Positions 8,701-51,568 of a stretch of DNA of 64,000 nucleotides are shown here, in pieces. The notes beneath the pieces were generated by a model, which saw nothing but the letters and a program-made list of their open reading frames with translations, searched no databases and had not been told where the DNA came from. Every line of letters starts with the position of its first letter. Positions within the stretch are counted from its first letter, which is position 1. The translations under genes and the position numbers were made by a program. Source of the DNA: an uncultured Muribaculaceae bacterium (GTDB lineage: Bacteria > Bacillota_I > Bacilli_A > RF39 > UBA660); the NCBI GenBank assembly GCA_964616485.1, contig CAZTRB010000005.1, positions 11,592-75,591 of the forward strand. Direction: 5' to 3'.

Positions 8701-9196
8701 TAAAAGGAACTTTACCTTCCATCGTAGAAAGATAACTAACGTTACTTAAATCCATTACTTCTTGAACAGAAGAGGATTGTAATATAGCAAACCCCGTCGT
8801 TCTAGCAGCATAGATATCTTGATGATCTCCTAAAATAGAAAGCGAATGACTCGCTAAAGAACGAGAAGCTACATTTATAACACAAGGAAATAACTGCCCT
8901 GCAATCTTATACATATTAGGAATCATCAACAAGAGTCCTTGAGAAGCCGTAAATGTCGTAGCTAAGATACCATTTTGAAGAGCACCATGAACCATAGCGA
9001 TAGCACCGGCTTCACTCTCCATCTCGACTACTTTTATTTTCGATCCCCAATAATTCTTCTTCCCTTCAGCACTCCAACTATCGACATTCTCAGCCATAGG
9101 TGATGCGGGTGTTATCGGATATATACCGGCTAGTTCAGAAAAATTATAAGCGACTAAACTACACGCTTCATTACCATCCATTATCTTATACATCAA
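5765..9196 (-). CDS. nifJ: pyruvate:ferredoxin (flavodoxin) oxidoreductase, single-chain PFOR
   Basis: N-terminus MDGNEACSLVAYNFSELAGIYPITPASPMAE; two CxxCxxCxxxCP ferredoxin motifs (CIMCNMCAFVCP, CTGCGLCVNICP); TPP-binding GDGW region; 1143 aa. Confidence 0.92.
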   Translation of the reverse strand: MMYKIMDGNEACSLVAYNFSELAGIYPITPASPMAENVDSWSAEGKKNYWGSKIKVVEMESEAGAIAMVHGALQNGILATTFTASQGLLLMIPNMYKIAGQLFPCVINVASRSLASHSLSILGDHQDIYAARTTGFAILQSSSVQEVMDLSNVSYLSTMEGKVPFINTFDGFRTSHELQKIEVIDFQKVKELINEDALKEFRSRALSINNLTRGTNTNDDIYFQLSEARNKYYDNLPDIVNEYMKKINAITGRDYKPFNYYGAKDATKIIVAMGSICETIKETINSLKGEKIGLIEVHLYRPFSSKYLLDVLPDTVTDIAVLSRTKEHGTSEPLYLDISNVIRETGKNIKVVGGRYGLSSKDTDPSLINAVYKFLDRKDKFNGFTIGIKDDLTNLSLDPITLTVDNETKEVVIYGFGSDGMVSVSKDIIKIVGNNTDSYVQGYFEYDSKKSGSVTKSHMRFASKPIKSTYYVNKPCLVVCTKDSYLSKFDMLDDIVENGTFIVNTFKDDKELFKALSNKDRAIIKNRNIKVYSLNANKISNEVGLGNKINTIMATAIFKVSKLIDFEIAFKEIKKALETLFKNKGTEVIEKNNRAIDRALETLTIVDFSGFDDIEDNKSSFVGKSIFDLINERRGYSIPVSEFEKIVDGSFVGGRSKEEKRNITDTVPVYNEENCIMCNMCAFVCPHGVIRPFLLNEEEVENAPESLKAKLIDANIKDQNLKYAIGVNIEQCTGCGLCVNICPGKKGEKALVMTAIEQINDEETLRETDYLFNVVTEKQVMTLNTVKGSQFATPKFEYSGACAGCGETPYIKLLTQLFGEELVIANATGCSSIYGGSVPSTPYSVPWANSLFEDNAEFGFGMRVSEVIHKDKIKMILRDNLSKINDNDLEVVNSYLEDTNLENSKRLYEIVDSLNIPELLEEKDFIKTKSFWIIGGDGWAYDIGYNGLDHVLASNEDVNILVLDTEMYSNTGGQASKSSKYGGIAKFAASGKETHKKNLAKMAMTYPHVYVATVSLGANMMQTIKAFNEAKNHKGPSLIIAYSPCIVQGIKAGMGTSIEEEKKATESGYFPIFRYNPTTEEFSLDSKADFDKYEEFLDGENRYAALNKVNPEKKDDFYDINKREAIRVYEHYESLKEDKKITE

Positions 9197-10142
9197 TATT
9201 TCTCCTTTTTAATCCCTTACTCATCTCTTTAATAATGTATATAGGTCTTTTCTTTATCTCTGAATATACCTTCGATAAATAGGCTCCTATTATTCCTAAT
9301 GAGAATAGTTGAACTCCTCCGACGAAGAAGATTAACCAAAATACTAATAACACACTACTTATAGAGACATCTATTATTAAGTTTACCACAATTATAACGA
9401 ATAAGACAAACGCTACGAGAGAAAATAATAGACTCATTACAAAAGGAATCATCAAAGGAACTGTTGAAAAACCAATTATTCCCTCGAAAGCATACACTAA
9501 GAGATTCCAAAAACTCCACTTAGTATTACCTGCCACTCTCTCGACATTCTTATACTCTAACCACTTAGTCTTAAATCCAACGAAAGTAAACAGACCTTTA
9601 GAATAACGATTATACTCTCTCATCGTCAAGATTGAATCGACTACTTGTCTTCTCATCAATCTAAAGTCTCTAGCTCCATCGACCATCTCTGTCTTAGAAA
9701 TTTTATTTATCAACTTATAAAATCTTCTAGCAAAGAAACTCCTAATAGGTGGTTCTCCTTTTCTAGTCGTCCTCCTACAAGCTACGACATCGTAGTCCTC
9801 CTCTTTAATAAGACGATACATCTCTTCTAAAAGACTAGGTGGATCTTGTAAATCAGCATCAAGCGTCGCTACATAATCTCCAGTCGCATGTTCTAATCCC
9901 GCTAAAACAGCACCTTCTTTACCAAAGTTTCTAGAAAGAGAAATATACTCTACTCTCTTATCTTTCTTCTTTAATTCTTTAATATATTCTAAAGTATTAT
10001 CTTTAGAACAATCATTGACAAAGACAAATTCAAAATTAACTTTCTTTAAGTTTTCTGCTATCCTAGTTACTTCTTCATAAAAGTAAGGAAGCGACTCCTC
10101 TTCATTATAACAAGGAACGACTAACGATATTTTTTCTCTCAT
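9186..10142 (-). CDS. family 2 glycosyltransferase, GtrB/CsbB-like polyprenyl-phosphate sugar synthase with C-terminal TM helices
   Basis: LVVPCYNEEESL...NDCSKDNT...DADLQDPP (DxD region) and two C-terminal TM helices, typical of bactoprenol-P glycosyltransferases. Confidence 0.85.
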   Translation of the reverse strand: MREKISLVVPCYNEEESLPYFYEEVTRIAENLKKVNFEFVFVNDCSKDNTLEYIKELKKKDKRVEYISLSRNFGKEGAVLAGLEHATGDYVATLDADLQDPPSLLEEMYRLIKEEDYDVVACRRTTRKGEPPIRSFFARRFYKLINKISKTEMVDGARDFRLMRRQVVDSILTMREYNRYSKGLFTFVGFKTKWLEYKNVERVAGNTKWSFWNLLVYAFEGIIGFSTVPLMIPFVMSLLFSLVAFVLFVIIVVNLIIDVSISSVLLVFWLIFFVGGVQLFSLGIIGAYLSKVYSEIKKRPIYIIKEMSKGLKRRNIDV

Positions 10143-10143
10143 A

Positions 10144-11592
10144 CTATTCTTTAATCCTTCTTTCTATTTTTTCAAAGATTCCCATATACCTAACATAAGC
10201 GTCTTTTTCCAAAGGAATCTCATAATACTTTTTAAGTTCTTTTAACTCTTCACTATTTATCGGGTTAAACTTATAGACTAGTTTTAAAGGGTTAGCTTTT
10301 ATCTCGATAGTATTTTGATTAGATTCTAACTGTTCTTTAATGTATTCTCCCCTAGTCTTCTCAAAATAAGATATTAACAAGAAAGAAGAGATATAATAAA
10401 TTACTAACAAGCTCGTTAATAAGACGACTCTCTTACTAACATTAAATTCTTTATTACTAACAAATATTGCTAAGGAACTAATTAAAAATAAAGTAAAGGC
10501 ATAATTATTACCAAAGTCCCACTCCTGTGATATAAGACTAAAAAGACTAACTGCAATCGAGAAGATAAATAAGACATTTATTAATCTCTTACTCTTTAAA
10601 TCTTTACTATAATAGTGAAGACTTCTAATCAATAAATAAAAATATAATAAGTAATAAAAAGCATAATACCAATTCTCTACTGCAAAGAAACCGTTATAAC
10701 GATTAATTACTAAAGTTAAAGATACTGGCGAATAGAAAGAGAAATTATAAATAAAAGAAAAATACAAGATGATATTAAATAAGACGATAAGTATTCTAGA
10801 GTAAATCCCTTTAAGTCTTTCCCCTAAATAAAAGTTAATCGGTATCGTCGACAATATTATTAATAATATATTTCTAGAAAAAGTATTTTCGATAAAATCG
10901 GGAATACTATTAAAGACATAGTTTATATCGAGAATAAAAATACTCTCTTTAAAGAAACTAAAGACGAATAATAAAGTCAAGAGATGAAAGATTACTACTA
11001 AGAGATACTTTTTATTATAATTACATATTAAGTAAAATATATTTGCTATAACAAAAGAAATAGCGATGAAGATAGACGAGGTAATAACATAACTACCGAG
11101 AAGTATCATCATGACATAATCACGATAGTTTCTCTCTTTATCTCTTATACTAAATAGACTATAGAAATATATAAAACCTAGTAATATCGGTATCGTATAA
11201 CTAAAAGCACCACTTACAGAGACGTAATTATAAGCAAACATATCGACGCTGACTAAAAGCATTAATAAAAATGTTATCACATACATAAACTTGTTCTTTA
11301 CTATTCCTAATAGAGTGTTGGTCCTAAAGACAAACATCGAAGTAACTATCGCTATTATCAGATTAAACCAAACTTTATTATAAGAGAATATATTAATAAA
11401 AAAACCACTTATTACTCTTCCGTCTAAAATAGAAGAATTTTCTAAATTATAAGCGATCCCCTCTTTACCTAAAGAAAAAAAAGCCCAATCTATTCCACCT
11501 AATGGAGATAAAAAAGCCACTATCAAAAAGAAGAAAAAGACATATGTCGTTAACTTATATTTATAATCTATCGTTTTAATTCTATCATTCAT
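10144..11592 (-). CDS. polytopic membrane protein (~12 TM), candidate GT-C-type glycosyltransferase or oligosaccharyltransferase partner of the GtrB-like enzyme
   Basis: 482 aa almost entirely hydrophobic helices with short loops, immediately upstream of and 2 nt from the GtrB-like gene; family not assignable by eye. Confidence 0.45.
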   Translation of the reverse strand: MNDRIKTIDYKYKLTTYVFFFFLIVAFLSPLGGIDWAFFSLGKEGIAYNLENSSILDGRVISGFFINIFSYNKVWFNLIIAIVTSMFVFRTNTLLGIVKNKFMYVITFLLMLLVSVDMFAYNYVSVSGAFSYTIPILLGFIYFYSLFSIRDKERNYRDYVMMILLGSYVITSSIFIAISFVIANIFYLICNYNKKYLLVVIFHLLTLLFVFSFFKESIFILDINYVFNSIPDFIENTFSRNILLIILSTIPINFYLGERLKGIYSRILIVLFNIILYFSFIYNFSFYSPVSLTLVINRYNGFFAVENWYYAFYYLLYFYLLIRSLHYYSKDLKSKRLINVLFIFSIAVSLFSLISQEWDFGNNYAFTLFLISSLAIFVSNKEFNVSKRVVLLTSLLVIYYISSFLLISYFEKTRGEYIKEQLESNQNTIEIKANPLKLVYKFNPINSEELKELKKYYEIPLEKDAYVRYMGIFEKIERRIKE

Positions 11593-11600
11593 AAAGTCTC

Positions 11601-12092
11601 CTATAACTTATCTATGTAATCCTCTATTAATTTTACCATATTTTTAGTATTACTCTCATACTTTTTAGGTTTAAAAGTCTTAGCTTTTTCTAAAGTCTTA
11701 GAAAGTTTATTAAGATCTTTAAGAGGAAGTATATATTTCTTAGAACTTAATTGTTCGATAATCTCTAATTGATGATCGTTATCATGCTCTTTAAACTTCT
11801 TTAGTCTAGGAGCAGCTATTACAACTTTATTATATTCTAATCCCTGTAAGATAGAACCTACTCCACCATGAGTAATTAATAAACTACAATCTTTAATCAT
11901 CTTAGCAAACTCTTCACGAGAAATAAAATCAAAGATTTTCATATTAGGACTCTCATACTTAGTATGACCTGCTTGGACAATTACTTCTTCTTTAATAGTT
12001 CCTTTCTTTATCTCTCTATCTATTTGCTCTAATAAACGTTTAAACTCTTTATCTTGAGTTCCAAGAGTAACTAATATCATTAGTAAATCCAC
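11601..12092 (-). CDS. Alg13-like glycosyltransferase catalytic subunit (GT28 C-terminal domain, Cps14G/EpsF-like)
   Basis: LVTLGTQDKEFKRL...LITHGGVGSILQGLEYNKVVIAAPR matches the GT28 C-terminal fold; overlaps the Alg14-like gene by 13 nt. Confidence 0.75.
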   Translation of the reverse strand: MDLLMILVTLGTQDKEFKRLLEQIDREIKKGTIKEEVIVQAGHTKYESPNMKIFDFISREEFAKMIKDCSLLITHGGVGSILQGLEYNKVVIAAPRLKKFKEHDNDHQLEIIEQLSSKKYILPLKDLNKLSKTLEKAKTFKPKKYESNTKNMVKLIEDYIDKL

Positions 12093-12550
12093 CCCCCATA
12101 AACCGCTTTAGGATAAAGTTTTAACATACTCTCCCATTGAACGATAAATAAATCGGCAAAGAGATAGATTAACCTTCCCGTAATCGTCTTACTCTTACTA
12201 TTAGCAAGCGTCTCGATATAAATAATCTTACTACCGAATATTTTACCGACACAACACATTGGTCCTGCCGTATGAGCACCAGTAGTTATGATTACTTTAG
12301 GTCTAATCTTAAAGTAAAGAAAGAGACTCTTAAAAGAATTATATATTAACTTAAAGGGATAAGTTAATAAATGAGCCTTAGTTCCATAGACTAAATACTT
12401 TACTTTTCCCGGATATTTATCTTTTAAAGTCATATTAGATTTAGTCTTTTCTGTTATTATATAGTGATCATATTTCTCAAACATCGAAGACAACTTCATC
12501 ATCTCAGATAAATGACCACCAGTAGAAGATATAAATAAAACCTTTTTCAT
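12080..12550 (-). CDS. Alg14-like glycosyltransferase accessory subunit (Cps14F/PssD-like)
   Basis: MKKVLFISSTGGHLSEM...IITTGAHTAGPMC...IIYIETLANSKSKTITGRL typical of Alg14-like proteins. Confidence 0.75.
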   Translation of the reverse strand: MKKVLFISSTGGHLSEMMKLSSMFEKYDHYIITEKTKSNMTLKDKYPGKVKYLVYGTKAHLLTYPFKLIYNSFKSLFLYFKIRPKVIITTGAHTAGPMCCVGKIFGSKIIYIETLANSKSKTITGRLIYLFADLFIVQWESMLKLYPKAVYGGWIY

Positions 12551-12557
12551 AAACCAC

Positions 12558-13772
12558 CTATTTTAGTATTTTAAACCAATCTTTCTCTATATTTTTAGCT
12601 AAGTACTTTTGAGATATTTTAAGATTCTCTTTACTTAGTTTTTCTCTATACTTATTATCTTTTAAAATAAGAACGATTTTTTCTTTTAAAAGGCTTAAGT
12701 CTCTATTAGGTATCAAAACATCACTATTATCTTCTAAGACTTCACATATTCCCTTAGCACTATCGAAACCAATAACAGGAAGTCCATAACTAGCAGCTTC
12801 GATTACGACTAAACCGAAAGACTCCGAGAATGATGTAGTTACGAAAAGAGAACTATCTAACATATACTTTTCTATCTTATCTTTAGATAAAAATCCGAGT
12901 AATTCGACATTATCATTTAAAGATAATTTCTTAATTTGTTTCTCTAAATTACTTCTTTCAGACCCATCACCGATTAGGTAAAGCTTAATATTAGGTATAT
13001 TTTCTCTAACCAAAGATAATACTTCTAAAAGGTCAGAGTGTCCTTTTTCTAGAGATAATCTTCCGACATTGATTATGTTATTTGTCTTTAATAGAGATTT
13101 TTTCTTCGGCAATTCGTCTAAGACATTGGGTATATAAAGACACTCTACATTCGTCTTATCTTTATAAAAGTCTCTGAGTTCTCTAGATACTAAGATAAAA
13201 TAAGAAAATCCTTTAATAGAAGATACTAACTTTCTAACATATTTTTTATCGTTATTATGATAGTTGTGATCGGTAACAATTTTTACAATATGTCTATTAC
13301 CATAAGTAGATACTAATCTATTATGGAAGGTCCTAGTAGTAATTACATACTTGCTATTTATTTTAATAATAGCATTAATATTTAAAAGACTTTTTTTAAA
13401 TAAGAGAACAAGAGCTATATATGCTTGTTTTAATATACCAAAGATATTCTTATTAGTTAATTCTTTTTTAAACTCTTCTCTATTAGGTTTAGAATCAATT
13501 AAATATTTTATCTTAATCTTCTTATCAAAATAAAACGCGGGTTGTTCTAGCAACTTATAAGTAGTTATAATCTCTATCTCAAACTTTTTATCTAGCATCT
13601 TACAAAGAGAAGACAAGTACTTTTCGATACCACCATATCCTAAATGAAGAGCTAATATCGTTATCTTATTTTCTTTTAGTTTTCTCTTGTTATATTTTAA
13701 AATTAAAAACACTAAAAATAAGATAATAACAAAAGACAATAATACTAATAACAGTTGCAATATATCACACAC
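12558..13772 (-). CDS. family 4 glycosyltransferase (GT-B, glycosyl transferase group 1) with N-terminal TM
   Basis: C-terminal GT-B motif NVGRLSLEKGHSDLLEV...TSFSESFGLVVIEAASYGLPVIG (E-x7-E region). Confidence 0.8.
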   Translation of the reverse strand: MCDILQLLLVLLSFVIILFLVFLILKYNKRKLKENKITILALHLGYGGIEKYLSSLCKMLDKKFEIEIITTYKLLEQPAFYFDKKIKIKYLIDSKPNREEFKKELTNKNIFGILKQAYIALVLLFKKSLLNINAIIKINSKYVITTRTFHNRLVSTYGNRHIVKIVTDHNYHNNDKKYVRKLVSSIKGFSYFILVSRELRDFYKDKTNVECLYIPNVLDELPKKKSLLKTNNIINVGRLSLEKGHSDLLEVLSLVRENIPNIKLYLIGDGSERSNLEKQIKKLSLNDNVELLGFLSKDKIEKYMLDSSLFVTTSFSESFGLVVIEAASYGLPVIGFDSAKGICEVLEDNSDVLIPNRDLSLLKEKIVLILKDNKYREKLSKENLKISQKYLAKNIEKDWFKILK

Positions 13773-13813: not shown

Positions 13814-13847
13814 AGCAAGAAAAAAGATATCTTTTTCAAGATATCTT
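13814..13847 (-). terminator. intrinsic terminator after the giant pilin-like gene
   Basis: Two copies of the self-complementary decamer aagatatctt (13824-13833, 13838-13847) form a 10-bp stem with loop tttc; T-run on minus strand (plus agcaagaaaa); stem includes stop codon. Confidence 0.55.
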
Positions 13848-16800
13848 ATCCCCAATTTTCACAACCACAAGCTGCTGTTCTACAAGAATTATTTCCTCCT
13901 ACACAAGTACTATAAGTGTATAGACAATTATTCCATCCACATGCACTATGTTGACAATAATAGTATCCGGCACATCCACAGCAATCATTATAACAGGTTG
14001 CAGCTTCCTCACCAGAAACACAACATGTTGTCGAAGTTTTATACCATGTTTGGCCACCCGAACTAGGTTTGCTACTTGCACACTTAGTTCCGCACCCATA
14101 ACCTCCTGTGTTTTGGTAACATTCATAGATATTTCCTTTAGTTTTACAATATGTTCCGCAACAAGAGTAACTAGTACATCTTTTATTTCCAGTACATCCG
14201 CATCCGGCAGTATAACAAGAATTATATCCTCCAACACAAACGGACGGGTTACCTGTTAAACAAGAATTCCATCCACAATTAGCATGTTGACAACTCTTAT
14301 TGGTAACACAACTCGATGTTATAGAACAAGTTCCTGTATTACCCGCTCCATCTGTAACCGTGTATGTCTTTGTACCTTTAACATTTGAATCATTATATGT
14401 AGCTGGAGATACTCCACTTGCATTATCAGAAGTTGTAACTTTTACGGTTATTCCATTAGCTCCATTCGCTGTTTTAACAGCAGTACAAGTAGGATTAACT
14501 GTATCTCTTTTTATCGTAAATACATTAGATGCAGCAGATGCATTACCTGCATTGTCAATTGATCTTACATAGAAATTCCAATTCCCATCCCAGTTTATCG
14601 TCCATGGATTTGACATTGCTGTCCAATTTGCAGCATCATGACTATACTGATAACTAGCAATTCCAGAACCAGTTCCGTCCGAAGATGATGCAGTTATTAC
14701 AACATTAGATTTTGTCCAAGTGCCTGAAGTATAAGAACCTAGATTGATCGTTGGTTTTGAAGGTTTTGTTGCATCTCTCTTTATTGTTACGACATTTGAA
14801 TTATCACTTATGTTACCAGATTTATCTATAGCCCTTACATAAACGTTCGTAGATATATCTGAACTAATTGTCCATGGATTCGACATCGTCGTCCATCCCG
14901 ACGTCCCATTAGTACTATATTCATATCTATCTAAGTTAGTATCCGATGAACTCGCTGTTATGACAATATTTTGATTTGACCATGTATTAGATGTATATGT
15001 AGTACCATCTGCTTTTTTCAAGGTTAAAGTTGGTTTCGACGGTTTCGTCGCATCTCTTTTAACATTAAAGACGTTTGACACATCACTTATATTACCAGCA
15101 CCATCAGTAGACCTTACATAGTAATTACTTTCGACATCTGTACTAATTGTCCATGGATTTGCCATATTTGTCCATCCTGAAGTTCCATTAACACTATATT
15201 CATATTTACTTATTCCTGAAATATTATCAGTTGAACTTGCCGTTACGACTACATTGCCAGAGGTCCATGTCCCTGAAGTATAAGAACCTAAATTGATCGT
15301 CGGTTTCGATGGTTTAGTAGCATCCCTTTTGATAACTACGGCATTAGATACATCACTAACATTTCCTGAGGAATCGATTGCTCTTACATAGATGTTTGTC
15401 GAAGTATCCCAGTTAATCGTCCATGGATTTGTCATAGCCATCCATCCCGATGTTCCGGTCGTACTATATTGATATCCAGCTAAGTTATCATCAGTTGAAC
15501 TTGCTGTAATGATTATATTTTGATTTGACCATGTATTAGATGTATAAGTAGAATTGTCTGCTTTCTTCATTGTCAATGTTGGTTTTGATGGTTTCGTCGC
15601 ATCTCTTCTAACAATAAATGGATTTGAATTATCACTTACGTTACCAGCACCATCAGTCGATCTGACATAGTAAGTTTTATCGGTATCGAAGTTTATCGTC
15701 CATGGATTTGACATCGTCGTCCATCCTGAAGTTCCATTGTTACTATATTCGTATTTGCTTATTCCCGAAATATTATCAGTTGAACTTGCCGTTACGACGA
15801 CATTACCAGAAGTCCATGTACCAGAAGTATACGAACCTAGATTAATCGTCGGCTTCGATGGTTTAGTACCATCTATTTTTACCGTTTGGTTGTTCGGACA
15901 AGTAACACAGTTTCCTGCTCTATCACAAACCTCGCCCGGTCCAGCCGTCGTCGTATTTATATCACTAGTATAAGGTTTAGTAATTGTCGTATTTACACAA
16001 CCACTACCACTATCACTACAAGTACCAATTATATTTACAGTCGTCTTACTCCATGCAGAACTTCCACCACTACTTACACAAGTTGGTTTCGTCGTATCGA
16101 TCGTATCGACGACTACCGCTTTATTAGTAACATGTCCAGCTTGGTCCTTAACCCACACATAATATGTACCATTATCAGAAGCTATATTTGGAACACCAAT
16201 TCCAAAACTAGTTCTTGCCGATATAGCGGTAAATGTCGGTTGTGTCGTCGAACTCTTATTTATACCGTAACCGATTATTCCTGAATTAGTATCTGTTCCG
16301 GTAAATACTATCGTTCCGTTAAGTCCGTCTTGACCAGTATCGATTATCGTCGAGTACGCTACATCCCAACTTACTGAAGTACCAGAACCCGTCAAGTAAA
16401 CGTGTCCGAAAGTCGAGAACGTTCCCGAACTACCCGCTTTTTGAATATAGATATATTCTGCCCAATCTCCAGTTCCAGCTTGTGGAGTGATCCAGTAGAC
16501 GCTTGAACCTGTACCGGTAGAATTAGAAGCTCTTTGAATAGTATACCCAACTGGTATCTTTGCAATTATTCTATGAGCATATACAGCATTAGCTCTCGAA
16601 GTTACAGTTTGAACATAACCTCCTAATCCAGGAGAACTGACACCATTTGTCGTTATTCTCATAACGTATGAACCATATGGGTTAGATTGAGCTACTCTAG
16701 CGTGAGTAACAGTACCATTTCCACTATTATTATATACGCTAAAGTTATTTGTCCCAGAAGCAAACGTCGGATCTTTGAATAACGGAGTCCCTGATATTGC

Positions 16801-18897: not shown

Positions 18898-18931
18898 AAT
18901 AAAGCTCCTTGTATTATCTTTTATATATAAC

Positions 18932-18960
18932 ATTTTAATATCTTTATACATAATAGTCAA
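18932..18960 (-). promoter_or_regulatory. candidate promoter of giant pilin-like gene (TTGACT-17-TAAAAT)
   Basis: Minus-strand ttgact (plus agtcaa 18955-18960), 17-nt spacer, taaaat (plus atttta 18932-18937); about 30 nt upstream of RBS/ATG. Confidence 0.4.
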
Positions 18961-21121: not shown

Positions 21122-21130
21122 GAGGACTTT

Positions 21131-22546: not shown

Positions 22547-22561
22547 TATACTGGAGGAATT

Positions 22562-24667
22562 ATGAAAAAGAAAAAGATCAAATACCAAAATATATTCACA
22601 ATACTTTGTATCTTAAGCAGCTTATATCTAATCCAATCTATCTACTTATTTTCACAAATAGAAACAGTTATTAGATACTCTGTAATTGGTATTTTAGTTC
22701 TTTTCGACTTCTTTATATTAATTAAGATGTTTTTCTTAAAGACTAAAAAAACTATTATATATATTATAGTCTTAGTCTTTTTTAGTGGAATATATATATT
22801 CTTAGGATACAATTTAAATAGAATATACTCTTATTTTACTAACTTAAATAAGACGATTACTTATTCGACTAGTTTAGTTACCTTAAAAAGTACTAAAGAT
22901 GTCGATCTAATAACACTTAAGAATGCTAATATAGGTCTTATCGATGATCCGACTTCTGAAGATGGACACATCTTAGCACAAGAGATAATAAAGAAAGAGA
23001 GTTTATCTAAAAACAATAATATTATCTATAGGCATTCATATACTGAACTTATATTAGATTTATATGATAAAGACTTAGACTATATTTTTCTTCCTAGTTC
23101 TTATGTCGATATCTTTAGTACGATCGAAGGTCTTGAAGATATAGAAGATAAAATTAAGACTATTCTAACGACAGAGATGGAAAAGACTAAAGAAGAGGCA
23201 CAACTATTAGGAGATCCTAAGAATATAGATGAACCATTCACGATGTTATTAATAGGTATTGATTCAACGGCTGATGGTATTCAAAATGCCGACTCATTTA
23301 ATGGAGATTCTCTTATGGTACTTACTTTTAATCCTAAGACGATGACTGCTACGATGTTAAGTATACCTAGAGATACGTATGTTCCAATAGCATGCTTTCC
23401 AAATAAAATAGAAAATAAGATAACTCATTCTGCTTCTCGTGGTACAAGTTGTGTTATAAATACTATTCAAAACTTATTGGATATAAAAATAGACTATTAT
23501 ATGAAGATTAACTTTACTGGTCTAGTCGAACTAGTCGATGCCGTCGGTGGAGTCGAAGTCGATGTTCCTTATAGTTTTTGTGAACAAAATAGTAAGAGAA
23601 AATTCGGTAATAGTACTATCTATGTAAAAGAAGGTTTAAGGACACTTAATGGTGAAGAGGCCTTAGCATTATCTAGAAATAGAAAGAATAATTATGAATA
23701 TTGTTCTAAAGAATGGACTAAGGGAAATAGAAGTGACTTTGTAAGAGCAGAGAACCAACAAAAAGTAGTTCAAGGAATATTAAATAAAGTAAAAGGTTAT
23801 ACTTCTATTAACAAAATAGAAGAGTTATTAAAAATAGTCTCTAAAAACTTAGATACTAATATGAGTGAGAAGACGATTTTCTCATTCTATAATATTGCAA
23901 AGGATGTCATGATATCATCGTCTAATTCTGATATACTATCTATTCAAAGATTAGAGATAGTCGGATGGGGACAAACGATATACGATGAGACATCTAAGTT
24001 ACAGTTGTGGAATTATGTTCCAAATAAGAGAAGTACCGAAGATGTAAAAGAAGCTATTAAAATAAATTTAGGACTGAAAAAACATGAGTTAATCAAGACT
24101 TTCACTTATTCTTGGAAAGAAGAATATACTCAAAAGATTCCAGGTAAAGGGCCTTATAGTATATATACTACTTATGACTTGCTAAAAGACTTTACTAACA
24201 TGAATATAACGGATGTCGAGCTATGGGCTGAAAAAAACGACATTACTTTAGTCATAGAAGAAGTAGAAAAGGTCGGTTACAAAAATGGTACAGTCGTTAA
24301 TCAAGAGTATCCAGTTAATAAGAGATTAGATTTAATACCCGATAGAACATTAAAAATAGAAGTAGTCAAGAATAAAGATACTAAAATAGACTGTTTAAAA
24401 GACGAGGAAAACATTATTTGTCTAATACCTGACTTTATCGGTAAAACTAAGAAAGACGTAGCTCTTTGGGGAAATAAGTTCTCTAATCTAGTAGATGTTA
24501 AATATGTAGAAGTGGAGTCTGAAGAAGAAGAGAATACGATAATAGATCAAACGATTAAAGGTATTACGATAAAAGAATTACTTGAGAATAAAGAGAGTAT
24601 CACTTTTACTATCGTTAAGAAAAAAGAAATAATACCACCTATCGAAGAAGAAATGGAAGAAGAATAA
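22562..24667 (+). CDS. LytR-CpsA-Psr (LCP) family cell-wall glycopolymer transferase with extended C-terminal region (701 aa)
   Basis: N-terminal TM helices; LCP core LLIGIDSTADG...GDSLMVLTFNPKTMTATMLSIPRDTYVPIAC...HSASRG...YYMKINFTGLVELVDAVGGVEVDVPYSF; ~280-aa C-terminal extension. Confidence 0.8.
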   Translation: MKKKKIKYQNIFTILCILSSLYLIQSIYLFSQIETVIRYSVIGILVLFDFFILIKMFFLKTKKTIIYIIVLVFFSGIYIFLGYNLNRIYSYFTNLNKTITYSTSLVTLKSTKDVDLITLKNANIGLIDDPTSEDGHILAQEIIKKESLSKNNNIIYRHSYTELILDLYDKDLDYIFLPSSYVDIFSTIEGLEDIEDKIKTILTTEMEKTKEEAQLLGDPKNIDEPFTMLLIGIDSTADGIQNADSFNGDSLMVLTFNPKTMTATMLSIPRDTYVPIACFPNKIENKITHSASRGTSCVINTIQNLLDIKIDYYMKINFTGLVELVDAVGGVEVDVPYSFCEQNSKRKFGNSTIYVKEGLRTLNGEEALALSRNRKNNYEYCSKEWTKGNRSDFVRAENQQKVVQGILNKVKGYTSINKIEELLKIVSKNLDTNMSEKTIFSFYNIAKDVMISSSNSDILSIQRLEIVGWGQTIYDETSKLQLWNYVPNKRSTEDVKEAIKINLGLKKHELIKTFTYSWKEEYTQKIPGKGPYSIYTTYDLLKDFTNMNITDVELWAEKNDITLVIEEVEKVGYKNGTVVNQEYPVNKRLDLIPDRTLKIEVVKNKDTKIDCLKDEENIICLIPDFIGKTKKDVALWGNKFSNLVDVKYVEVESEEEENTIIDQTIKGITIKELLENKESITFTIVKKKEIIPPIEEEMEEE

Positions 24668-31291: not shown

Positions 31292-31864
31292 ATGAATTAT
31301 CCAAAAGGCGTAAAAGTAATAGAAAATAAAAACTATAGATACGATAATAGAGGTATGATCTTAGAAGAAGACATAAACCTCTCTAATCAATATTATATAA
31401 ATAAGAAGATAGCCTATATATATAAGAGACCCACTCCAATACAAGCTACTAAGACGGAATATCGGAACAATAAAAAGATTATTAAAGAGGCTTTTTTTAA
31501 GGAGTCCTCTACTACCGATTATAACGGTCTTTATAAAGGAATATATATAGATTTTGAGGCTAAGGAGACGAGAAGTAAGACTTCTTTTCCATTAAGTAAC
31601 ATTCATAACCATCAAATAGAACATTTAACAAATGTCTTAGATAATGGTGGGTTGGCTTTCTTTATAATTAGATTTACTACTTTGGATAAGACTTTTTTAT
31701 TAACAGCAAAAGACTTTATAGAATATTTTCAGACTAGTAAAAGAAAATCTATTCCTTTAGATTATTTTAATGAAAGAGCATATCTTATCAAAGAGGGCTA
31801 CAATATTAGATTAGACTATATTAAAATAGTAGATATACTATTGGGAGGTACAAATGAGTGCTAA
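31292..31864 (+). CDS. recU: Holliday junction resolvase RecU
   Basis: GMILEEDINLSNQYY...YKGIYIDFEAKET...HQIEHL core; upstream of ponA as in Bacilli. Confidence 0.85.
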   Translation: MNYPKGVKVIENKNYRYDNRGMILEEDINLSNQYYINKKIAYIYKRPTPIQATKTEYRNNKKIIKEAFFKESSTTDYNGLYKGIYIDFEAKETRSKTSFPLSNIHNHQIEHLTNVLDNGGLAFFIIRFTTLDKTFLLTAKDFIEYFQTSKRKSIPLDYFNERAYLIKEGYNIRLDYIKIVDILLGGTNEC

Positions 31865-34652
31865 AAAGAGAAACAATAAAAAGAAATTATCGATAAAAAG
31901 AAATGTTAGGGATTTGATAATATTTACAATAATCGCTACTATTTTAGGATTAGTATTTATGAACTTAGTTTTTACTCTTCTTATGTTAGTAGGTATTTTC
32001 ATAATATTAAAACTATCTATATACTTAAGTAAAAAGAAAAAGAAGAAATCTTTTAGAATAATCTTAAATACTTTGGTTGCTATTATCTTAATTGGTTCAA
32101 TTGCAGTAGTCATCGGTGGTGCGTGGTTCTTAAATCGCGTCGTTAAAAATTCGCCAGAATTTAATGAAGAGGTATTATCGATGTCACAAACGACAAAGAT
32201 ATTCGATATGAATGGTGTTGAAATTACCGAATTAGGTACGGAAAAAAGAGAGATAATAAAGTTCGAAGACATGAGCGAAGTCTTAATAGACGCTCTAGTC
32301 GCTACTGAGGATTCTAGATTCTTTCAACATAACGGATTTGATGCTCCTCGTTTCTTAGCCGCTTCTGTCAAACAAATTTTAGGACAAAAAGATGCCGGTG
32401 GTGCTTCGACTATTACGATGCAAGTAGCTAAAAACAGTTATAACAAAGATAGATCTAATGTAGCATCTGGTACTGAAGGTATCGAACGTAAATTTAGTGA
32501 TATTTACTTAGCCGTATTTAAAATAGAAAAAAACTATTCTAAACAAGAGATCTTAGAGTTCTATATAAACAACCACTTCTTGGCAAACAATGCTTATGGA
32601 GTAGAACAAGCTAGTAAAATATATTTTAATAAGAAAGCTAGTCAATTAACGTTGTCTGAAGCGGCTCTTATAGTAGGAATGTTCCAAGCACCTAGTGCTA
32701 CTGATCCTTTTAAGTATCCAGAAACGGCTACTAAAAGAAGAGCCGAAGTATTATATTTAATGCAGACTCACGGATACATAACTAAAGAAGAAAGAGATAT
32801 TGCAAATGCAATACCCGTAAAATCACTTTTATTTTCGACAGCCGAAGAACAAAAATTTTATTCTTATTTAAATACTGTCGTTGAAGAAGCAATCAAGAAG
32901 TATGACGTTAATCCACATACTAGTTCTTTATTAGTATATACGAATATGAATAGATCATATCAAACTATAATCGATGATGTCTTTAGTGGAGCTACCTTTA
33001 ACTGGGAAAACCCTGTCGTTCAAGCGGGAGTCACACTTATGGACGTAAATACTGGTAAAATATTAGCTATCGGAGCCGGTAGAAACCAAACGGGTAATAG
33101 AAACCATAACTATGCTACTAGTTCAAAAAGACAAATCGGATCTGTAGCAAAACCGTTATTCGACTATGGTCCTGGTTTTGAATATAACAACTGGTCTACT
33201 TATACATTGTTCGATGATTCACGTTATTATTACTCGACTGGACAAGAATTAAGAAACTCAGATCGTGGTTATATGGGAACGATTACACTTAGAACCGCTC
33301 TTGCACAATCAAGAAATATACCAGCATTAAAAGCCTTCCAACAAGTAAATAAAAAACAAGTCTTTGACTTCGTCGATTCTCTTGGTGTAAGCATGGAACC
33401 TGACGCTTATAAGTCTAAATATCTACATGAAGCATATTCGATTGGTGCTTACACTGGATCTAATCCATTAGAGATGGCTGGAGCTTTTGCAGCTTTTGCT
33501 AACGGAGGGTTCTATTACGAACCGTATACTATTAACAAGATTGTCTTTAGAGATACGGGAGAAGTTCTAACAAACGAGTCTACGAAACAAAAAGTCATGA
33601 GTAGTTCAACTGCTTTCATGATGAACGACGTCTTAAAGACTGCAGTTAATAGTGGGCTAAGTGGTGCTGCTAAAATAAACGGTGTTAACATCGCTGCAAA
33701 GACGGGGACGACGAACCATACACCAGCTACATTACAAACTTTCGGATTACCAGGTAGTGCTTTAAACGATGCTTGGGTAGTCGGTTATGATACTAAGTTA
33801 GTCCTTTCTATCTGGTACGGATACGAACCTATAAGTCGACAATATTATACGACTAGTAATTCCGCTTATGTACAAAGAAAAGCACTATTCTCGGCTATTG
33901 GAGGAAAGATATTCCAAAGAGATGGATCGGACTTTCCAATGCCAAACACTGTCGTAAAAGTAGCTATCGAGATGGGAACTAACCCTGCTAAATTAGCTAG
34001 TCAATATACCCCTTCCGATAAAATAGTCTATGAATATTTTAAGAAAGGAACAGAGCCCACCGAAGAGTCGACAGTATACAAGAAGATGAATGCTCCTAGC
34101 AATCTCTCCTTGAGTTATGAACCTTCTACTAAAAACTTAATCTTAAATTGGAACTCAGCAGGTAACAAAGCAGATGACGATCTCGGTCTCGGTGCGCTAG
34201 GATATAAGATATATAAGAATGATGCTTATATAGACTTTACAACGAGTACTTCCTATACGATTAAAAACACTAGTAACCCAAATGGTATCTATTCAATTAG
34301 AGCCGGTTACCAACATAGTGATCAAAACAATAGTGGTGCTATATCTAAAGAGTTCTCTTTAGATAATATGAGTACTTATGATGCCACTTTAAACGTTCCA
34401 GCTAATAAGACTTATAGAGTAGGAGATTCTTTAGAAGCATATGATTTAAATCCAGGTGCTGGCGACGTAAAACTTCTTAAAGATGGAGTAGTTACCGTTG
34501 GAACTGTAGCAATATCAATTAAAAATAAAGACGGAGACACCGTCTCTGGTATCGATACAATAGATGTTGACAAATATACGATAACATATGTAGTAAGCTA
34601 TAAGAGTGCTTATACAAAAACATTAACGAGAACCGTTACTATAGATCCATAA
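31854..34652 (+). CDS. ponA: class A penicillin-binding protein 1A (transglycosylase + transpeptidase) with C-terminal extension
   Basis: GT51 motifs EDSRFFQHNGFD, ITMQVAKN; transpeptidase SVAKP (SxxK), SRN, KTGT; ~250-aa Ser/Thr-rich C-terminal extension. Confidence 0.92.
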   Translation: MSAKKRNNKKKLSIKRNVRDLIIFTIIATILGLVFMNLVFTLLMLVGIFIILKLSIYLSKKKKKKSFRIILNTLVAIILIGSIAVVIGGAWFLNRVVKNSPEFNEEVLSMSQTTKIFDMNGVEITELGTEKREIIKFEDMSEVLIDALVATEDSRFFQHNGFDAPRFLAASVKQILGQKDAGGASTITMQVAKNSYNKDRSNVASGTEGIERKFSDIYLAVFKIEKNYSKQEILEFYINNHFLANNAYGVEQASKIYFNKKASQLTLSEAALIVGMFQAPSATDPFKYPETATKRRAEVLYLMQTHGYITKEERDIANAIPVKSLLFSTAEEQKFYSYLNTVVEEAIKKYDVNPHTSSLLVYTNMNRSYQTIIDDVFSGATFNWENPVVQAGVTLMDVNTGKILAIGAGRNQTGNRNHNYATSSKRQIGSVAKPLFDYGPGFEYNNWSTYTLFDDSRYYYSTGQELRNSDRGYMGTITLRTALAQSRNIPALKAFQQVNKKQVFDFVDSLGVSMEPDAYKSKYLHEAYSIGAYTGSNPLEMAGAFAAFANGGFYYEPYTINKIVFRDTGEVLTNESTKQKVMSSSTAFMMNDVLKTAVNSGLSGAAKINGVNIAAKTGTTNHTPATLQTFGLPGSALNDAWVVGYDTKLVLSIWYGYEPISRQYYTTSNSAYVQRKALFSAIGGKIFQRDGSDFPMPNTVVKVAIEMGTNPAKLASQYTPSDKIVYEYFKKGTEPTEESTVYKKMNAPSNLSLSYEPSTKNLILNWNSAGNKADDDLGLGALGYKIYKNDAYIDFTTSTSYTIKNTSNPNGIYSIRAGYQHSDQNNSGAISKEFSLDNMSTYDATLNVPANKTYRVGDSLEAYDLNPGAGDVKLLKDGVVTVGTVAISIKNKDGDTVSGIDTIDVDKYTITYVVSYKSAYTKTLTRTVTIDP

Positions 34653-38018: not shown

Positions 38019-39059
38019 TTACATAATTAACGCTTTTTCATTCAAAACATAGCGATAAGCCTTATTTTCATGGATAATAATAAACGTACTTTCTCTTTTC
38101 CTCTTACTCTCAAAAAACAAGATAGGTATCCTTAATTCATCTTCGATATCGATTAGATCTTTAACGTTAGTTATATCCATTACATTAAATTTACTTAAGT
38201 CTGGTTTTTTAGCCACTTCAGCGATAACATTGGCATAAGTAGTTAAGATCCTATCTCTTTCTTTAGTGTAAGGGTCAGCGTTTTTAAGGTGTAGTACTCT
38301 CTTTAAATAATAGAAGAATAAGACAAATGACACCATTACTAAGAATATTCCAATAGTAAGACCGTACTGATTAACGATGTTATCTTTACTAAAAACATTT
38401 TTATTCTCATTGAAAGATCCCGTTTTATCGACACTTACTACCGTATCCAAAAGAGGAATTTTAGCTGTCATAGTGTGAAGATCAGCGACTTTCTTAGCCG
38501 TTTCTTTAGTCGTAATAAGATTGTTTATTTCAAAGACAACTTTTATATAAGCCTCTGTTAAGATAGAACTTTCTTTTCTAAACTCCAAAGCTTCTTCTTG
38601 ATATTCTTTATAATCGATAGTCGTTTTATAATCAAAGAACACGACTCCTGTCTCTTGTTTTATGACTTTATTTTTAGGAAACAAAACGTCTTCTCTCTTC
38701 CATAATTCTTCCGTTTGAAGGCCGTCTTTATAAGTGTTAACTAAAAACAAAGATATAGAATATTCCGCTTCAGAATCAATTAGATTAATAGACGTAAGGT
38801 CATAAGTAAATTTTAAATCGATATAGTCGATATATTTAGCTAGAATCTTATTCTTATTAATATATTCATCTTTATATAAAAAGTTATCTTTTAGTCTAAA
38901 ATTATACTCGATATCACCGAAAGATTTATAATCGACAACGATATTATTTTTGTTATTTTCTATACTCGTACTATCATAAGTTATAATTGATCCGGCAAAA
39001 AAGAGTAATACCCCTAGTAATAATAATACTATACTTTCCTTTTCTTTAGTTCTTTTCAT
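38019..39059 (-). CDS. bitopic membrane protein (N-terminal TM, ~220-aa extracytoplasmic domain, second TM, ~100-aa cytoplasmic tail), last gene of der-hup island
   Basis: TM1 IVLLLLGVLLFFAGSII, TM2 GLTIGIFLVMVSFVLFFYYL; 14-nt gap to SipW-like gene; no assignable motif. Confidence 0.5.
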   Translation of the reverse strand: MKRTKEKESIVLLLLGVLLFFAGSIITYDSTSIENNKNNIVVDYKSFGDIEYNFRLKDNFLYKDEYINKNKILAKYIDYIDLKFTYDLTSINLIDSEAEYSISLFLVNTYKDGLQTEELWKREDVLFPKNKVIKQETGVVFFDYKTTIDYKEYQEEALEFRKESSILTEAYIKVVFEINNLITTKETAKKVADLHTMTAKIPLLDTVVSVDKTGSFNENKNVFSKDNIVNQYGLTIGIFLVMVSFVLFFYYLKRVLHLKNADPYTKERDRILTTYANVIAEVAKKPDLSKFNVMDITNVKDLIDIEDELRIPILFFESKRKRESTFIIIHENKAYRYVLNEKALIM

Positions 39060-39073
39060 CTTGACCTCCTATT

Positions 39074-40213: not shown

Positions 40214-40310
40214 GGTCCTCCTATTATAAATATTATATACTACAACAAAGAAAAAAAACAACTTTTACAGTCTTTTGTACTGTTTAATTGTTTTTTTGTA
40301 AACTTATCTT

Positions 40311-40826: not shown

Positions 40827-40880
40827 ATAATCCTCCTATAATAAATTTTAATATATATGGCTTTTATTGTCAATTATTCG

Positions 40881-41948: not shown

Positions 41949-41964
41949 TTAATCACATCCTTTA

Positions 41965-42587: not shown

Positions 42588-42588
42588 A

Positions 42589-49483: not shown

Positions 49484-51568
49484 TTAACTCCCTTTAATAA
49501 TATCTTCTTCGTTTACTACCGTTAATCTAGAATTCTTTATCAAGTCATATATTAGAATGTCATTAGATACTCTTAGTAACTTATCTACAAATTCCGTATT
49601 CTTAACGACTTCTTCTTGATTGACAATAGCGTTACCAAATACATAAGTCTCTTTTTTTCTACTGTTATAATACATATCTTTATTTAACCAACTACCATTT
49701 GGAAAAGGTACGAGGTTATTCTCCTTAACGCTGAATATATCTCTACCCAATGCATAATTATTATAAAAACCAAACATGTTTCCTAAAGTCGGCATTACGT
49801 TATACATAGCCATCGGATAACTAATTACTTCTGGTTTAACATCAGAGTCTTTAGACCATATTATTAATGGGACTCTCTTGATAAGTTCATAATCATACTC
49901 ATTGAAAGGTACATAATCAGGATCTTCTTCATCTAAAACAGCATCGTTTTCTTTATCATAGTTATAGAAACGTACATAGTTATCAAATGGTAATTTAGCA
50001 TCGTGATCACCATAGAGTACAATGACTGTGTTTTCTAACAATCCTTTGTCTTCTAATTCTTCTAATAATACTCCTAAAGCATAATCGGCATAATGAGCAG
50101 ACTTAATATAATTACCAAACTTAGTTCCTTCCATATAAGGATAAACGATCTCTTCAGTCTCACCAATTTCCTCATTATAAACTAATTCTTTTATATCGAC
50201 GGCAAACTCACCGTATTTATCTACTTGATTAAAAGGAGTATGATTGGTAAGCATGATAAGTGTCGCATAATAATTATCGTGCTCTTTCGCTATCTCTTCT
50301 ATTTTTAATACCGATTGTTTAAAGAAAGAAACATCGGATAAACCAAGGCCGATTATTTCATCGATCTCGTAATCAGTCTTTCCATATAAACGGTCATACC
50401 CCAAACTTTTATGCATAACTCTTCTGTTCCAATAGTCAGCATTATTACCATGCATCGAAAAGGCATAATATTCTTTTTCTTTTAATAATTTTGGTATAGA
50501 AATATACTCTTTATCGGCATAATTGCCAAAAGCCGTACCGACATTAGCCGGCATTAACGAAGTGTTAAAAGTAAACTCCGTATCACTACTATTACCTACG
50601 TTAACATGGGCAAAAAAGTTATCGAAATAAAGCCCAGAAGACGCTAATTTGTTTAAATTAGGAGTTACTTCTTCGCCATTAAATTTTAATCCGATTAAGA
50701 AAGATTGAAGACTTTCACCGTGTATAGATATTATATTCTTACCCTCATATACATTGGTATATTTATTACTCTTTTCTTTTATTGGAGTTTCAAAATATTC
50801 ATTAAAGTTTTTAAGGGCATTATCAAATCCAAAAAGAGAAGCAAATTTAGGTTCAAGGCTTTTCACCATATCATTTAAATGATATGGAAAGATACCAAAT
50901 CTCATAACGATGTTTTCCCTATTCCACTGTCTCATTAAAGTACCATAATCATTATCTCTTAATTGTAATAAGAAAAATATCGTAGAAAAAACTGCAAAAG
51001 CAAAAGTAGCTTTAGCTAATTTTTTAGAAGTCTTTAAAAACCCCGTATTTTTATAATAATCGTTTTTTAAATAATGACGATGAAAATAATATAAAATTAT
51101 CGGTGCTAATAGATATAGAAGATCTTTGATTTCAAAGACATTTTCTATAACGGCATCTCCGACAGCAACGATAAACTTCATCGTCGAAAGTTGAGATATA
51201 GAAGCGAAAGAAGTATAGTTCGTATAATAAGAAGAGTTAATTAAACAAATAAGAGATAAGATAAAAGTAATTGAAAACATATAAGTAAACTTATATTTAT
51301 CTTTTAATAGATAAGAGATTGAACCGATCAATAATATAAAGGAAAAGTCTCCTAATAGAGGAGAATAGTCTAATAGATTATCAATCGAATTTATCGTTAA
51401 ATATCTAAGTAACCAAGCATTAAAAACATTTAAAAAAACAAACAATACAAATAATTTATTGTTCTTTAAATATGTTACAAAAGAATTTTTAAAATTTAAA
51501 AGACTTCCTTTCGGATTATTTTTAAATGTATTATAATTTTTTTTAATCTTTCTAAATAACTTCTTCAT
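49484..51568 (-). CDS. ltaS: LtaS-family polyglycerolphosphate (lipoteichoic acid) synthase / sulfatase-like membrane enzyme
   Basis: Five N-terminal TM helices then extracellular alkaline-phosphatase-superfamily domain (IHGESLQSF, FSMHGNNADYWNR, LTNHTPF, YGDHD). Confidence 0.8.
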   Translation of the reverse strand: MKKLFRKIKKNYNTFKNNPKGSLLNFKNSFVTYLKNNKLFVLFVFLNVFNAWLLRYLTINSIDNLLDYSPLLGDFSFILLIGSISYLLKDKYKFTYMFSITFILSLICLINSSYYTNYTSFASISQLSTMKFIVAVGDAVIENVFEIKDLLYLLAPIILYYFHRHYLKNDYYKNTGFLKTSKKLAKATFAFAVFSTIFFLLQLRDNDYGTLMRQWNRENIVMRFGIFPYHLNDMVKSLEPKFASLFGFDNALKNFNEYFETPIKEKSNKYTNVYEGKNIISIHGESLQSFLIGLKFNGEEVTPNLNKLASSGLYFDNFFAHVNVGNSSDTEFTFNTSLMPANVGTAFGNYADKEYISIPKLLKEKEYYAFSMHGNNADYWNRRVMHKSLGYDRLYGKTDYEIDEIIGLGLSDVSFFKQSVLKIEEIAKEHDNYYATLIMLTNHTPFNQVDKYGEFAVDIKELVYNEEIGETEEIVYPYMEGTKFGNYIKSAHYADYALGVLLEELEDKGLLENTVIVLYGDHDAKLPFDNYVRFYNYDKENDAVLDEEDPDYVPFNEYDYELIKRVPLIIWSKDSDVKPEVISYPMAMYNVMPTLGNMFGFYNNYALGRDIFSVKENNLVPFPNGSWLNKDMYYNSRKKETYVFGNAIVNQEEVVKNTEFVDKLLRVSNDILIYDLIKNSRLTVVNEEDIIKGS

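Follow-up and report, generated by a model that had tools for sequence, protein, structure and literature searches.

The window analysed here is a 64-kb stretch of contig CAZTRB010000005.1, from an uncultured bacterium of the order RF39, and the element under study is a cassette of five glycosylation genes lying head to tail between a giant pilin-like gene and the PFOR gene. With moderate confidence, this cassette can be read as a cell-envelope operon that would build a lipid-linked glycan combined with Gtr-type extracytoplasmic decoration, and as part of the backbone of its lineage, not an accessory of the pilin-like gene. The reading draws on profile and structure matches of the encoded proteins, on a scan of nearly all of the larger open reading frames of this one 64-kb window against Pfam, and on the conservation of the locus in related genomes. 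The five genes are as follows.

13772..12558, minus strand: GT4 glycosyltransferase, 404 aa
12550..12080, minus strand: Alg14-like protein, 156 aa
12092..11601, minus strand: Alg13-like protein, 163 aa with a GTG start
11592..10144, minus strand: polytopic protein with 12 transmembrane segments (12-TM protein), 482 aa
10142..9186, minus strand: GtrB-like protein, 318 aa

These genes had been proposed in a first-pass annotation made from the sequence alone. All five are present on the minus strand at these positions, and the family suggested for each is borne out by Pfam and NCBIfam profiles and by structure-database matches.

Composition and layout of the cassette

The Alg14-like protein matched the Pfam family Alg14 (E 3.5e-18) and scored 171.4 bits against the NCBIfam model PssD, for which the cut-off is 110, while the Alg13-like protein matched Glyco_tran_28_C (E 1.4e-13) and scored 151.5 bits against PssE, for which the cut-off is 120. 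The former is predicted to be the PssD/Cps14F-family subunit of a split GT28-type glycosyltransferase, and the latter the catalytic subunit, of the PssE/Cps14G family. Enzymes of the PssD/PssE family are split beta-1,4 glycosyltransferases that add the second sugar onto a first sugar linked to a lipid through pyrophosphate during synthesis of polysaccharide repeat units, and the predicted presence of such a pair points to a lipid-linked glycan.

At the other end of the cassette, the GtrB-like protein matched Glycos_transf_2 (PF00535) over residues 6-171 with 139.4 bits against a cut-off of 23.3 (E 1.5e-40). Residues 4-307 aligned to the structure of Synechocystis GtrB (5EKP, E 2.3e-71), membrane helices included, and matches to ArnC were obtained at E 1e-42 to 1e-44, with hydrophobic segments at residues 214-232 and 239-257 in the C-terminal part. 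Because the alignments to the GtrB and ArnC structures are full-length, the protein is predicted to be a complete GtrB/ArnC-type polyprenyl-phosphate sugar synthase.

The 12-TM protein had no Pfam or NCBIfam matches of its own. In a large protein collection 47 relatives were found, most of them 40-46% identical, and an AlphaFold2 model built on these 47 sequences (pLDDT 88, pTM 0.89) displayed approximately 12 membrane helices, two short helices in loop 1 and a small C-terminal alpha/beta domain. The top Foldseek matches in the PDB were STT3 (STT3A/B and yeast STT3), PglB, ArnT, AftA and AftB, with weak scores (TM score ~0.4, E 0.01-0.2) and probabilities of up to 1.0; matches outside GT-C, for example to transporters, had probabilities below 0.25. 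On the basis of this model the protein is predicted to have a GT-C-like fold. Since wall-polymer GT-C enzymes generically return STT3, PglB, ArnT and Aft structures as their best matches (PMC8035078), the matches to oligosaccharyltransferases are evidence of fold and not of function. No PDB sequence was retrieved with a profile of the 12-TM family.

Family membership was approached through the relatives of the protein. Of the 47 close relatives, 18 match PF19528 (DUF6056), with a best E of 9e-39; a profile search with the subfamily recovered 1089 cluster representatives among 1.84 billion proteins, and 89 of 90 sampled distant relatives match PF19528. By transitive homology the 12-TM protein would be a divergent, distantly related member of this GtrC-type family, which one tool labels 'GT_STM0557_N'. 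In Salmonella LT2, STM0557 is gtrC of the gtr cluster STM0557-0559, the products of which glucosylate galactose of the O-antigen (PMC2909390, PMC3688519). The wider family carries a near-invariant G-D-D-W motif just past helix 1, and the second aspartate of this motif (Asp35) is invariant in the subfamily and would lie in the first extracytoplasmic loop, a loop which should face outward given the Lys/Arg-rich N-terminus. Only ~55 residues follow the last helix, without the large soluble domain of the oligosaccharyltransferases. At E <= 1, neither the window protein nor any subfamily member among the 47 gave a YfhO match, PMT_2 was not matched by the 12-TM protein in Pfam, and Wzy_C was absent from the window protein and matched weakly by one of the 47 relatives (E 0.0029). 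Identification as a Wzx flippase, a Wzy polymerase or a WaaL-type ligase was rejected, there being no fold or family support for any of the three.

A viral structure search with the 12-TM model gave one good match, a 445-aa hypothetical protein of Oenococcus phage phiS13 (KF183315.1), with TM scores of 0.61/0.66 and E 6e-7, and homology was corroborated by hhalign (99.1% probability, E 8e-19). The phage gene is followed directly by one annotated as 'bactoprenol glucosyl transferase', the two lying near attR in the lysogenic-conversion region (39615-41921), and this transferase is 42% identical to the GtrB-like protein of the window, so that both loci have the same gene order, polytopic then GtrB. 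Together with the GT-C-like fold and the kinship to PF19528, this order agrees with the earlier proposal that the GtrB-like gene and its polytopic partner form an extracytoplasmic glycosylation pair. The phiS13 pair differs from the cassette in that it is an uncharacterised phage pair standing alone, with no Alg14/Alg13 or GT4 genes. It resembles a Gtr-type pair for lysogenic conversion, so far unrecognised, in a phage whose host is Gram-positive. A tblastn search of phage genomes with a typical DUF6056 protein returned only two weak partial matches. Among bacterial homologues, a DUF6056 relative of 27% identity sits in a polysaccharide locus alongside an O-antigen-ligase-like gene, Alg14, Alg13, two GT2 genes, GT4, UDP-glucose dehydrogenase, a deacetylase and a 2-epimerase, with no membrane-anchored GtrB nearby.

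The GT4 protein matched Glycos_transf_1 in Pfam (E 3.5e-40) and is predicted to be a retaining GT-B-fold glycosyltransferase with a single N-terminal membrane anchor; its matches were to generic GT4 enzymes only, and none of the NCBIfam equivalog cut-offs was passed. Translation of GT4 would begin at a GTG or TTG codon served by a weak ribosome-binding site. Ten orthologues from related genomes (loci in the range L003-L012, L015) are 680-719 aa long, compared with 404 aa in the window, and carry an additional polytopic N-terminal domain of ~290 aa and ~9 helices, which is 19-28% identical across species and had no Pfam matches. The window protein appears to be N-terminally truncated relative to these orthologues, retaining the last helix alone of that domain, and no remnant of the missing part was found anywhere in the 64-kb window by tblastn or hidden Markov model searches. 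Its best solved relatives were SdgB, GtfA and TarM, with alignments confined to the C-terminal Rossmann/nucleotide-sugar domain (residues 230-402), and scores of 92.4 bits against SdgA (cut-off 800) and 78.3 bits against GtfA (cut-off 574.6). A function as an SdgB/GtfA-like protein O-GlcNAc transferase was rejected, as the match was to the generic C-terminal domain only and all cut-offs were missed.

The five reading frames are closely packed, with corrections to some of the distances given in the first-pass annotation. The gap between GT4 and Alg14 reads as 7 nt in the sequence. A 13-nt overlap between Alg14 and Alg13 requires the GTG at 12092 as the Alg13 start; starting instead at the ATG at 12080, which is likely the true start, leaves an overlap of 1 nt (TAATG), and a separate gene call on an identical contig gives an Alg13 product of 159 aa. 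Alg13 and the 12-TM gene are 8 nt apart, with an AGGAG ribosome-binding site, and the 12-TM and GtrB-like genes are separated by 1 nt, not by the 2 nt first reported. At the downstream end, the reported 11-nt overlap of the GtrB stop with the PFOR start holds for a TTG start at 9196 and becomes 8 nt for an ATG at 9193. PFOR, a gene of central metabolism, thereby appears translationally coupled to the glycosylation operon in the window (9186-9196); in relatives the GtrB-PFOR junction is a gap of 100-200 nt.

Conservation of the locus in related genomes

One genome per species was scanned, yielding 15 related loci from metagenome-assembled genomes of uncultured gut and rumen Bacilli, one of them (L008) on a closed 1.31-Mb chromosome (OZ006981.1). 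The upstream side was readable in 13 of the 15 loci. The contig of the closest relative (82% identical) ends short of the upstream region. The trio Alg14-Alg13-12TM was found in the same order and at the same chromosomal position in all 15 related species genomes, with Alg14 74-83% identical to its orthologue at every one of these loci. The shared backbone consists of two divergent arms: reading outwards from their meeting point, one arm carries genes for an SH3-dockerin protein, a cadherin-like protein, an LCP (LytR-CpsA-Psr) protein with PASTA domains and RNase J, and the other carries GT4 (variably present), Alg14, Alg13, 12TM, GtrB (variably present), PFOR and, further on, RecG. In a tree of the core proteins the window lineage falls outside all 15 relatives, at 52-57% identity.

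Either side of this trio, gene content varies. GT4 is absent or replaced in some relatives, and GtrB follows 12TM in seven related loci (L003, L006, L008, L009, L011, L014 and L015; eight with the window), overlapping it by 4 nt in L003 and L006. It is absent in L004 and L013, a soluble GT2 is present instead in L017, in L012 and L016 unrelated genes hold the position, and the L010 locus is rearranged. Such variable glycosyltransferase content is typical of surface-glycan loci, which usually determine the structure of surface antigens and phage receptors, and the lineage appears to keep a small conserved surface-glycan operon of which the glycosyltransferase content is species-variable. The unrelated cargo 3' of 12TM in L012 (7053-9137) and L016 (11466-13163) consists of a gene for a HopA1-effector-like protein in one of the two and a gene for a serpin-domain protein in the other.

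Upstream of the cassette in the window lie the giant pilin-like gene and a hairpin.

13846-18960, minus strand: giant pilin-like gene, with a prepilin-type N-terminus and OmpL47-type barrels
13818..13847, minus strand: hairpin and U-run, directly 3' of the stop of the giant gene and upstream of the cassette

Translation of the giant protein probably starts at the ATG near 18896, behind which stands an AAGGAG ribosome-binding site. Its N-terminus is prepilin-type (N_methyl 29.3 bits, TIGR02532 27.8 bits), and no type IV pilus machinery was found among the scanned open reading frames of the window. The earlier description of this protein as Ser/Thr-rich stands as regards overall composition (24.8% Ser+Thr against a window mean of 13.6%), but no poly-Ser/Thr tract is present, the densest 30 aa having 43% Ser+Thr, and the protein is built of folded repeat domains. 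The hairpin reported between the giant gene and the cassette was recovered as an AT-rich 10-bp stem at 13847-13824 followed by UUUUUUCUU, with a free energy of -10.2 kcal/mol (z = -3.8 against shuffles). It was not called by a consensus terminator scan, since that scan demands at least three G-C pairs and the stem has fewer, and it is a moderate candidate for an intrinsic terminator.

Among the 13 readable loci, the SH3-dockerin gene is the direct upstream neighbour of the cassette in 10, and a giant prepilin-like gene lies directly upstream in two, L003 (2-6289) and L006 (1042-6870), which are 92% identical to each other across the core. In L014 a giant prepilin-like gene (1-1812) is found beyond the LCP block, within 10 kb. 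The repeats of the proteins in L003 and L006 are Listeria-Bacteroides repeats and ephrin-receptor-like Cys-rich repeats, compared with the OmpL47-type barrels of the window, and on the core-protein tree the distribution of the pilin-like gene is patchy, as is that of GtrB. Between the SH3-dockerin gene and the cassette there appears to be a variable site for giant prepilin-type surface proteins, empty in most relatives. The proposal that the cassette exists to modify the adjacent pilin-like protein is not supported by these data, given a core present in 15 of 15 genomes and an SH3-dockerin gene upstream in 10 of 13. With the operon separated from the variable giant adhesin genes in this way, glycosylation of the adhesins by the cassette should not be assumed.

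Envelope context, proposed pathway and alternatives

Further genes of the window provide a context for the cell envelope.

22562..24667, plus strand: LCP protein with C-terminal PASTA domains, 701 aa (LytR_cpsA_psr E 1.7e-38, and PASTA)
31854..34652: class A penicillin-binding protein, from the window scan
49484..51568, minus strand: LtaS-like protein with membrane segments and a sulfatase-type domain, 694 aa

DivIVA is also present. Based on the class A penicillin-binding protein, DivIVA, LCP-PASTA and LtaS-like genes, the organism makes peptidoglycan, and probably lipoteichoic acid as well. Lipoteichoic acid is one possible acceptor for the Gtr-type pair, and the LCP-PASTA protein, to judge from the conserved neighbourhood only, is a possible ligase for the lipid-linked glycan of the cassette. 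The only polytopic proteins among the scanned open reading frames of the window are the 12-TM protein, PgsA, a fusion with an S26 peptidase, the LtaS-like protein and BrkB.

From the gene identities, the fold of the 12-TM protein, the family relations and the synteny described above, a pathway can be inferred in which donor, acceptor and sugars are proposed as follows. A priming enzyme encoded elsewhere would put the first sugar on undecaprenyl phosphate, the Alg14/Alg13 heterodimer would add the second sugar at the cytoplasmic face, and the membrane-anchored GT4 would lengthen the glycan. An unlinked flippase would then flip the lipid-linked glycan, which would be attached to the wall, the nearby LCP protein being a candidate ligase for this, or to a different polymer of the envelope. 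At the same time, the GtrB-type enzyme would make an undecaprenyl-phosphate monosaccharide that is then flipped, and the GtrC-type GT-C protein would transfer this monosaccharide outside the membrane onto an envelope glycopolymer, either the cassette glycan or lipoteichoic acid. An envelope polymer other than protein is the most likely acceptor, on the analogy of family precedent (the O-antigen and the phiS13 conversion module), given the polysaccharide locus of the distant relative, the presence of the LCP and LtaS-like genes, and the conservation of the cassette without the pilin-like gene. A cell-wall polymer, which had been named initially as the alternative target, would on this evidence be the better choice of acceptor.

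Several observations weigh against the reading as an envelope-glycan operon with Gtr-type decoration. The pathway is incomplete within the 64-kb window: in agreement with the first-pass annotation, no priming phosphoglycosyltransferase and no Wzx-like flippase, and likewise no GtrA-like flippase or Wzy polymerase, were found among the scanned open reading frames, nor does the window contain a small open reading frame of three to four helices of the GtrA type. The PF19528 model does not match the window 12-TM protein even at E <= 1, and the first aspartate of the G-D-D-W motif is gone across the subfamily, the window motif being G-I-D-W. GtrB is missing beside an intact 12TM in several relatives, so that the pairing is not obligatory. 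Proximity to the LCP gene is weak functional evidence, since synteny in these small genomes extends over the entire region, and in streptococci pairs of GtrB-type and GT-C proteins glycosylate proteins (PMC12041528).

The last of these points leads to an unlikely alternative, in which the GtrB-like enzyme makes an undecaprenyl-phosphate sugar and the GT-C protein O-glycosylates Ser/Thr residues of surface proteins, including the giant adhesin, in a manner resembling streptococcal Pgf or GtrB/PgtC2, or TfpW-type pilin glycosylation. The top NCBIfam model for the GtrB-like protein is PgfS (NF047588, E 1e-93), at a score of 313.9 bits that falls below the cut-off of 500. The streptococcal pairs act on Ser/Thr-rich protein regions, and the Ser+Thr enrichment of the giant neighbour and its export by a prepilin-type signal would suit such a target, but the known protein-glycosylating GT-Cs PgfM1, PgfM2 and PgtC2 are of the YfhO family (PMC12041528) and the 12-TM protein is not. 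The family of the 12-TM protein is instead named for an O-antigen glucosyltransferase, and the giant protein consists of folded repeats, without a disordered poly-Ser/Thr tract. Linkage gives a similarly divided picture. Counting the window, giant prepilin-like genes occur directly upstream (L003, L006) or nearby (L014) in three lineages, and GtrB is present at four of four loci with a pilin-like gene against three of seven without (hypergeometric p ~0.11). This association is not significant and the loci are phylogenetically non-independent, while 10 of 13 informative loci retain the core with no adjoining pilin-like gene, and in the window the hairpin parts the two transcription units.

A second alternative, likewise improbable, centres on the trio: the 12-TM protein would partner Alg14/Alg13 as an en-bloc transferase, ligase or polymerase of an oligosaccharide linked to undecaprenyl pyrophosphate, with GtrB an optional addition. 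Alg14-Alg13-12TM is the sole invariant trio, adjacent and in order throughout, with 12TM 8 nt past Alg13 in the window, and GtrB is absent or replaced in at least five loci with an intact 12TM; GtrB supplied in trans nevertheless has precedent in Salmonella and Shigella (PMC3688519), and those GtrB genes that do follow 12TM are translationally coupled to it, as indicated by the 1-nt gap in the window and the 4-nt overlaps in L003 and L006. The best PDB fold matches are oligosaccharyltransferases, yet matches to these, ArnT and Aft are both weak and generic for GT-C proteins (PMC8035078), and the large C-terminal soluble domain of the oligosaccharyltransferases is missing. The distant relatives point in both directions, in that the 27%-identical protein is accompanied by Alg14/Alg13 with no membrane-anchored GtrB nearby, while the phage homologue is paired with GtrB alone and the family exemplar is a GtrC that uses undecaprenyl-phosphate-glucose. 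A variant that appears quite unlikely is that the invariant Alg14-Alg13-DUF6056 trio is a minimal lipid-linked pathway whose GT-C glycosylates exported proteins, among them the giant prepilin-type adhesins that recur in the site just upstream; if true, this would add a GT-C family to those known to glycosylate proteins in Gram-positive-type bacteria.

It is very unlikely that the cassette is two unrelated neighbours, with GT4 and Alg14/Alg13 building a glycolipid or linkage unit and GtrB and 12TM decorating another polymer, for example lipoteichoic acid, as CsbB/YfhO or GtlA/GtlB do: an LtaS-like gene is present in the window, glycosylation of lipoteichoic acid by GT-A and GT-C pairs is documented in Firmicutes (PMC8035078), GT4 and GtrB vary independently of the Alg14-Alg13-12TM core and GT4 has weak matches to glycolipid-anchor synthases (Mgs 3e-17, IagA/BgsA 3e-9), but these matches are far below the cut-offs and weaker than those to other GT4 enzymes, 12TM is always directly 3' of Alg13 in one tight array, and Alg14/Alg13 and DUF6056 also occur together in the distant polysaccharide locus.

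Two other features of the window were observed. A divergent block on the plus strand (19106-24667), kept in 11 related genomes, encodes an SH3_3/dockerin/cadherin-like protein (671 aa), a cadherin-like protein (471 aa) and the LCP-PASTA protein (701 aa), the last of these being an unusual fusion. A cluster on the minus strand (38019-43482) encodes a 395-aa protein with ~8 membrane segments and an S26 signal-peptidase domain, a DUF5305 protein, several proteins without a family and a WXG100-like protein of 100 aa, and may be a secretion or surface-fibre module.

Comparison with known glycosylation systems

The Alg14-like and Alg13-like proteins resemble Cps14F/Cps14G, PssD/PssE and WelK in passing the family cut-offs and in being adjacent and translationally coupled. 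The usual companions at cps/eps loci (a priming CpsE/WbaP-type transferase, Wzx, Wzy and chain-length regulators) are not in the window. Similarly, Wzx/Wzy-dependent loci differ from the window by their priming transferase, Wzx and Wzy, in place of which only a candidate LCP ligase is seen.

The Gtr system of Salmonella Typhimurium (STM0557-0559, gtrC-A) is like the cassette in placing a GtrB-type synthase beside a polytopic, serotype-specific transferase, and by transitive homology the 12-TM protein would be a distant member of the Pfam family that takes its name from STM0557. In Gtr systems GtrC is very divergent and GtrB conserved (PMC3688519), and the window lineage behaves alike, with between-species identities of 40-45% for 12TM and 63-67% for GtrB. 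The differences are that no GtrA flippase is found in the cassette or the window, that the host is Gram-positive-type, so that the acceptor cannot be O-antigen, that the pair lies in a chromosomal operon with cytoplasmic glycan-building enzymes and not in a prophage, and that the first aspartate of the DD motif is missing.

The CsbB/YfhO/GtcA, GtlA/GtlB, CsdAB and GacI/J/K/L systems share with the cassette the logic of a membrane GT-A synthase of undecaprenyl-phosphate sugar, a flippase and a GT-C. Multi-component systems of Gram-positive bacteria decorate lipoteichoic acid, wall teichoic acid or wall polysaccharide, with the flippase and sometimes other partners encoded elsewhere, and an unlinked flippase has precedent in Listeria and Bacillus (PMC8035078). 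The GT-C of the window differs from those of these systems in being neither YfhO nor PMT_2 by Pfam.

Among protein-glycosylating systems, Streptococcus mutans Pgf (PgfS/PgfM1/PgfE/PgfM2) and GtrB/PgtC2 likewise combine a GtrB-type synthase with a GT-C, PgfS provides the top NCBIfam match, and adhesin genes in S. mutans are encoded beside glycosylation genes (PMC12041528). They differ from the cassette in that the PgfS cut-off is unmet, that the partner is of the YfhO family there and DUF6056 here, that their targets are poly-Ser/Thr disordered regions, which the giant protein of the window does not have, and that linkage to an adhesin gene is not conserved in relatives of the window. The TfpO/PglL or TfpW pilin systems differ in the same respect, as pilin linkage is not conserved (2 of 13 directly upstream and one more within 10 kb), and in that the 12-TM protein of the window has no Wzy_C match.

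Each component of the cassette can thus be assigned, from profile and fold comparisons, to a known family, and the architecture appears to fit known three-component glycosylation systems. What is new is incremental: an unannotated subfamily is placed within DUF6056/GtrC, a conserved Alg14-Alg13-GT-C trio is described in an uncultured lineage with reduced genomes, and a variable slot for giant prepilin-like genes is recognised beside that trio. A class of function is thereby proposed for an unannotated membrane protein in a poorly known lineage of gut and rumen Bacilli with genomes of ~1.3 Mb.

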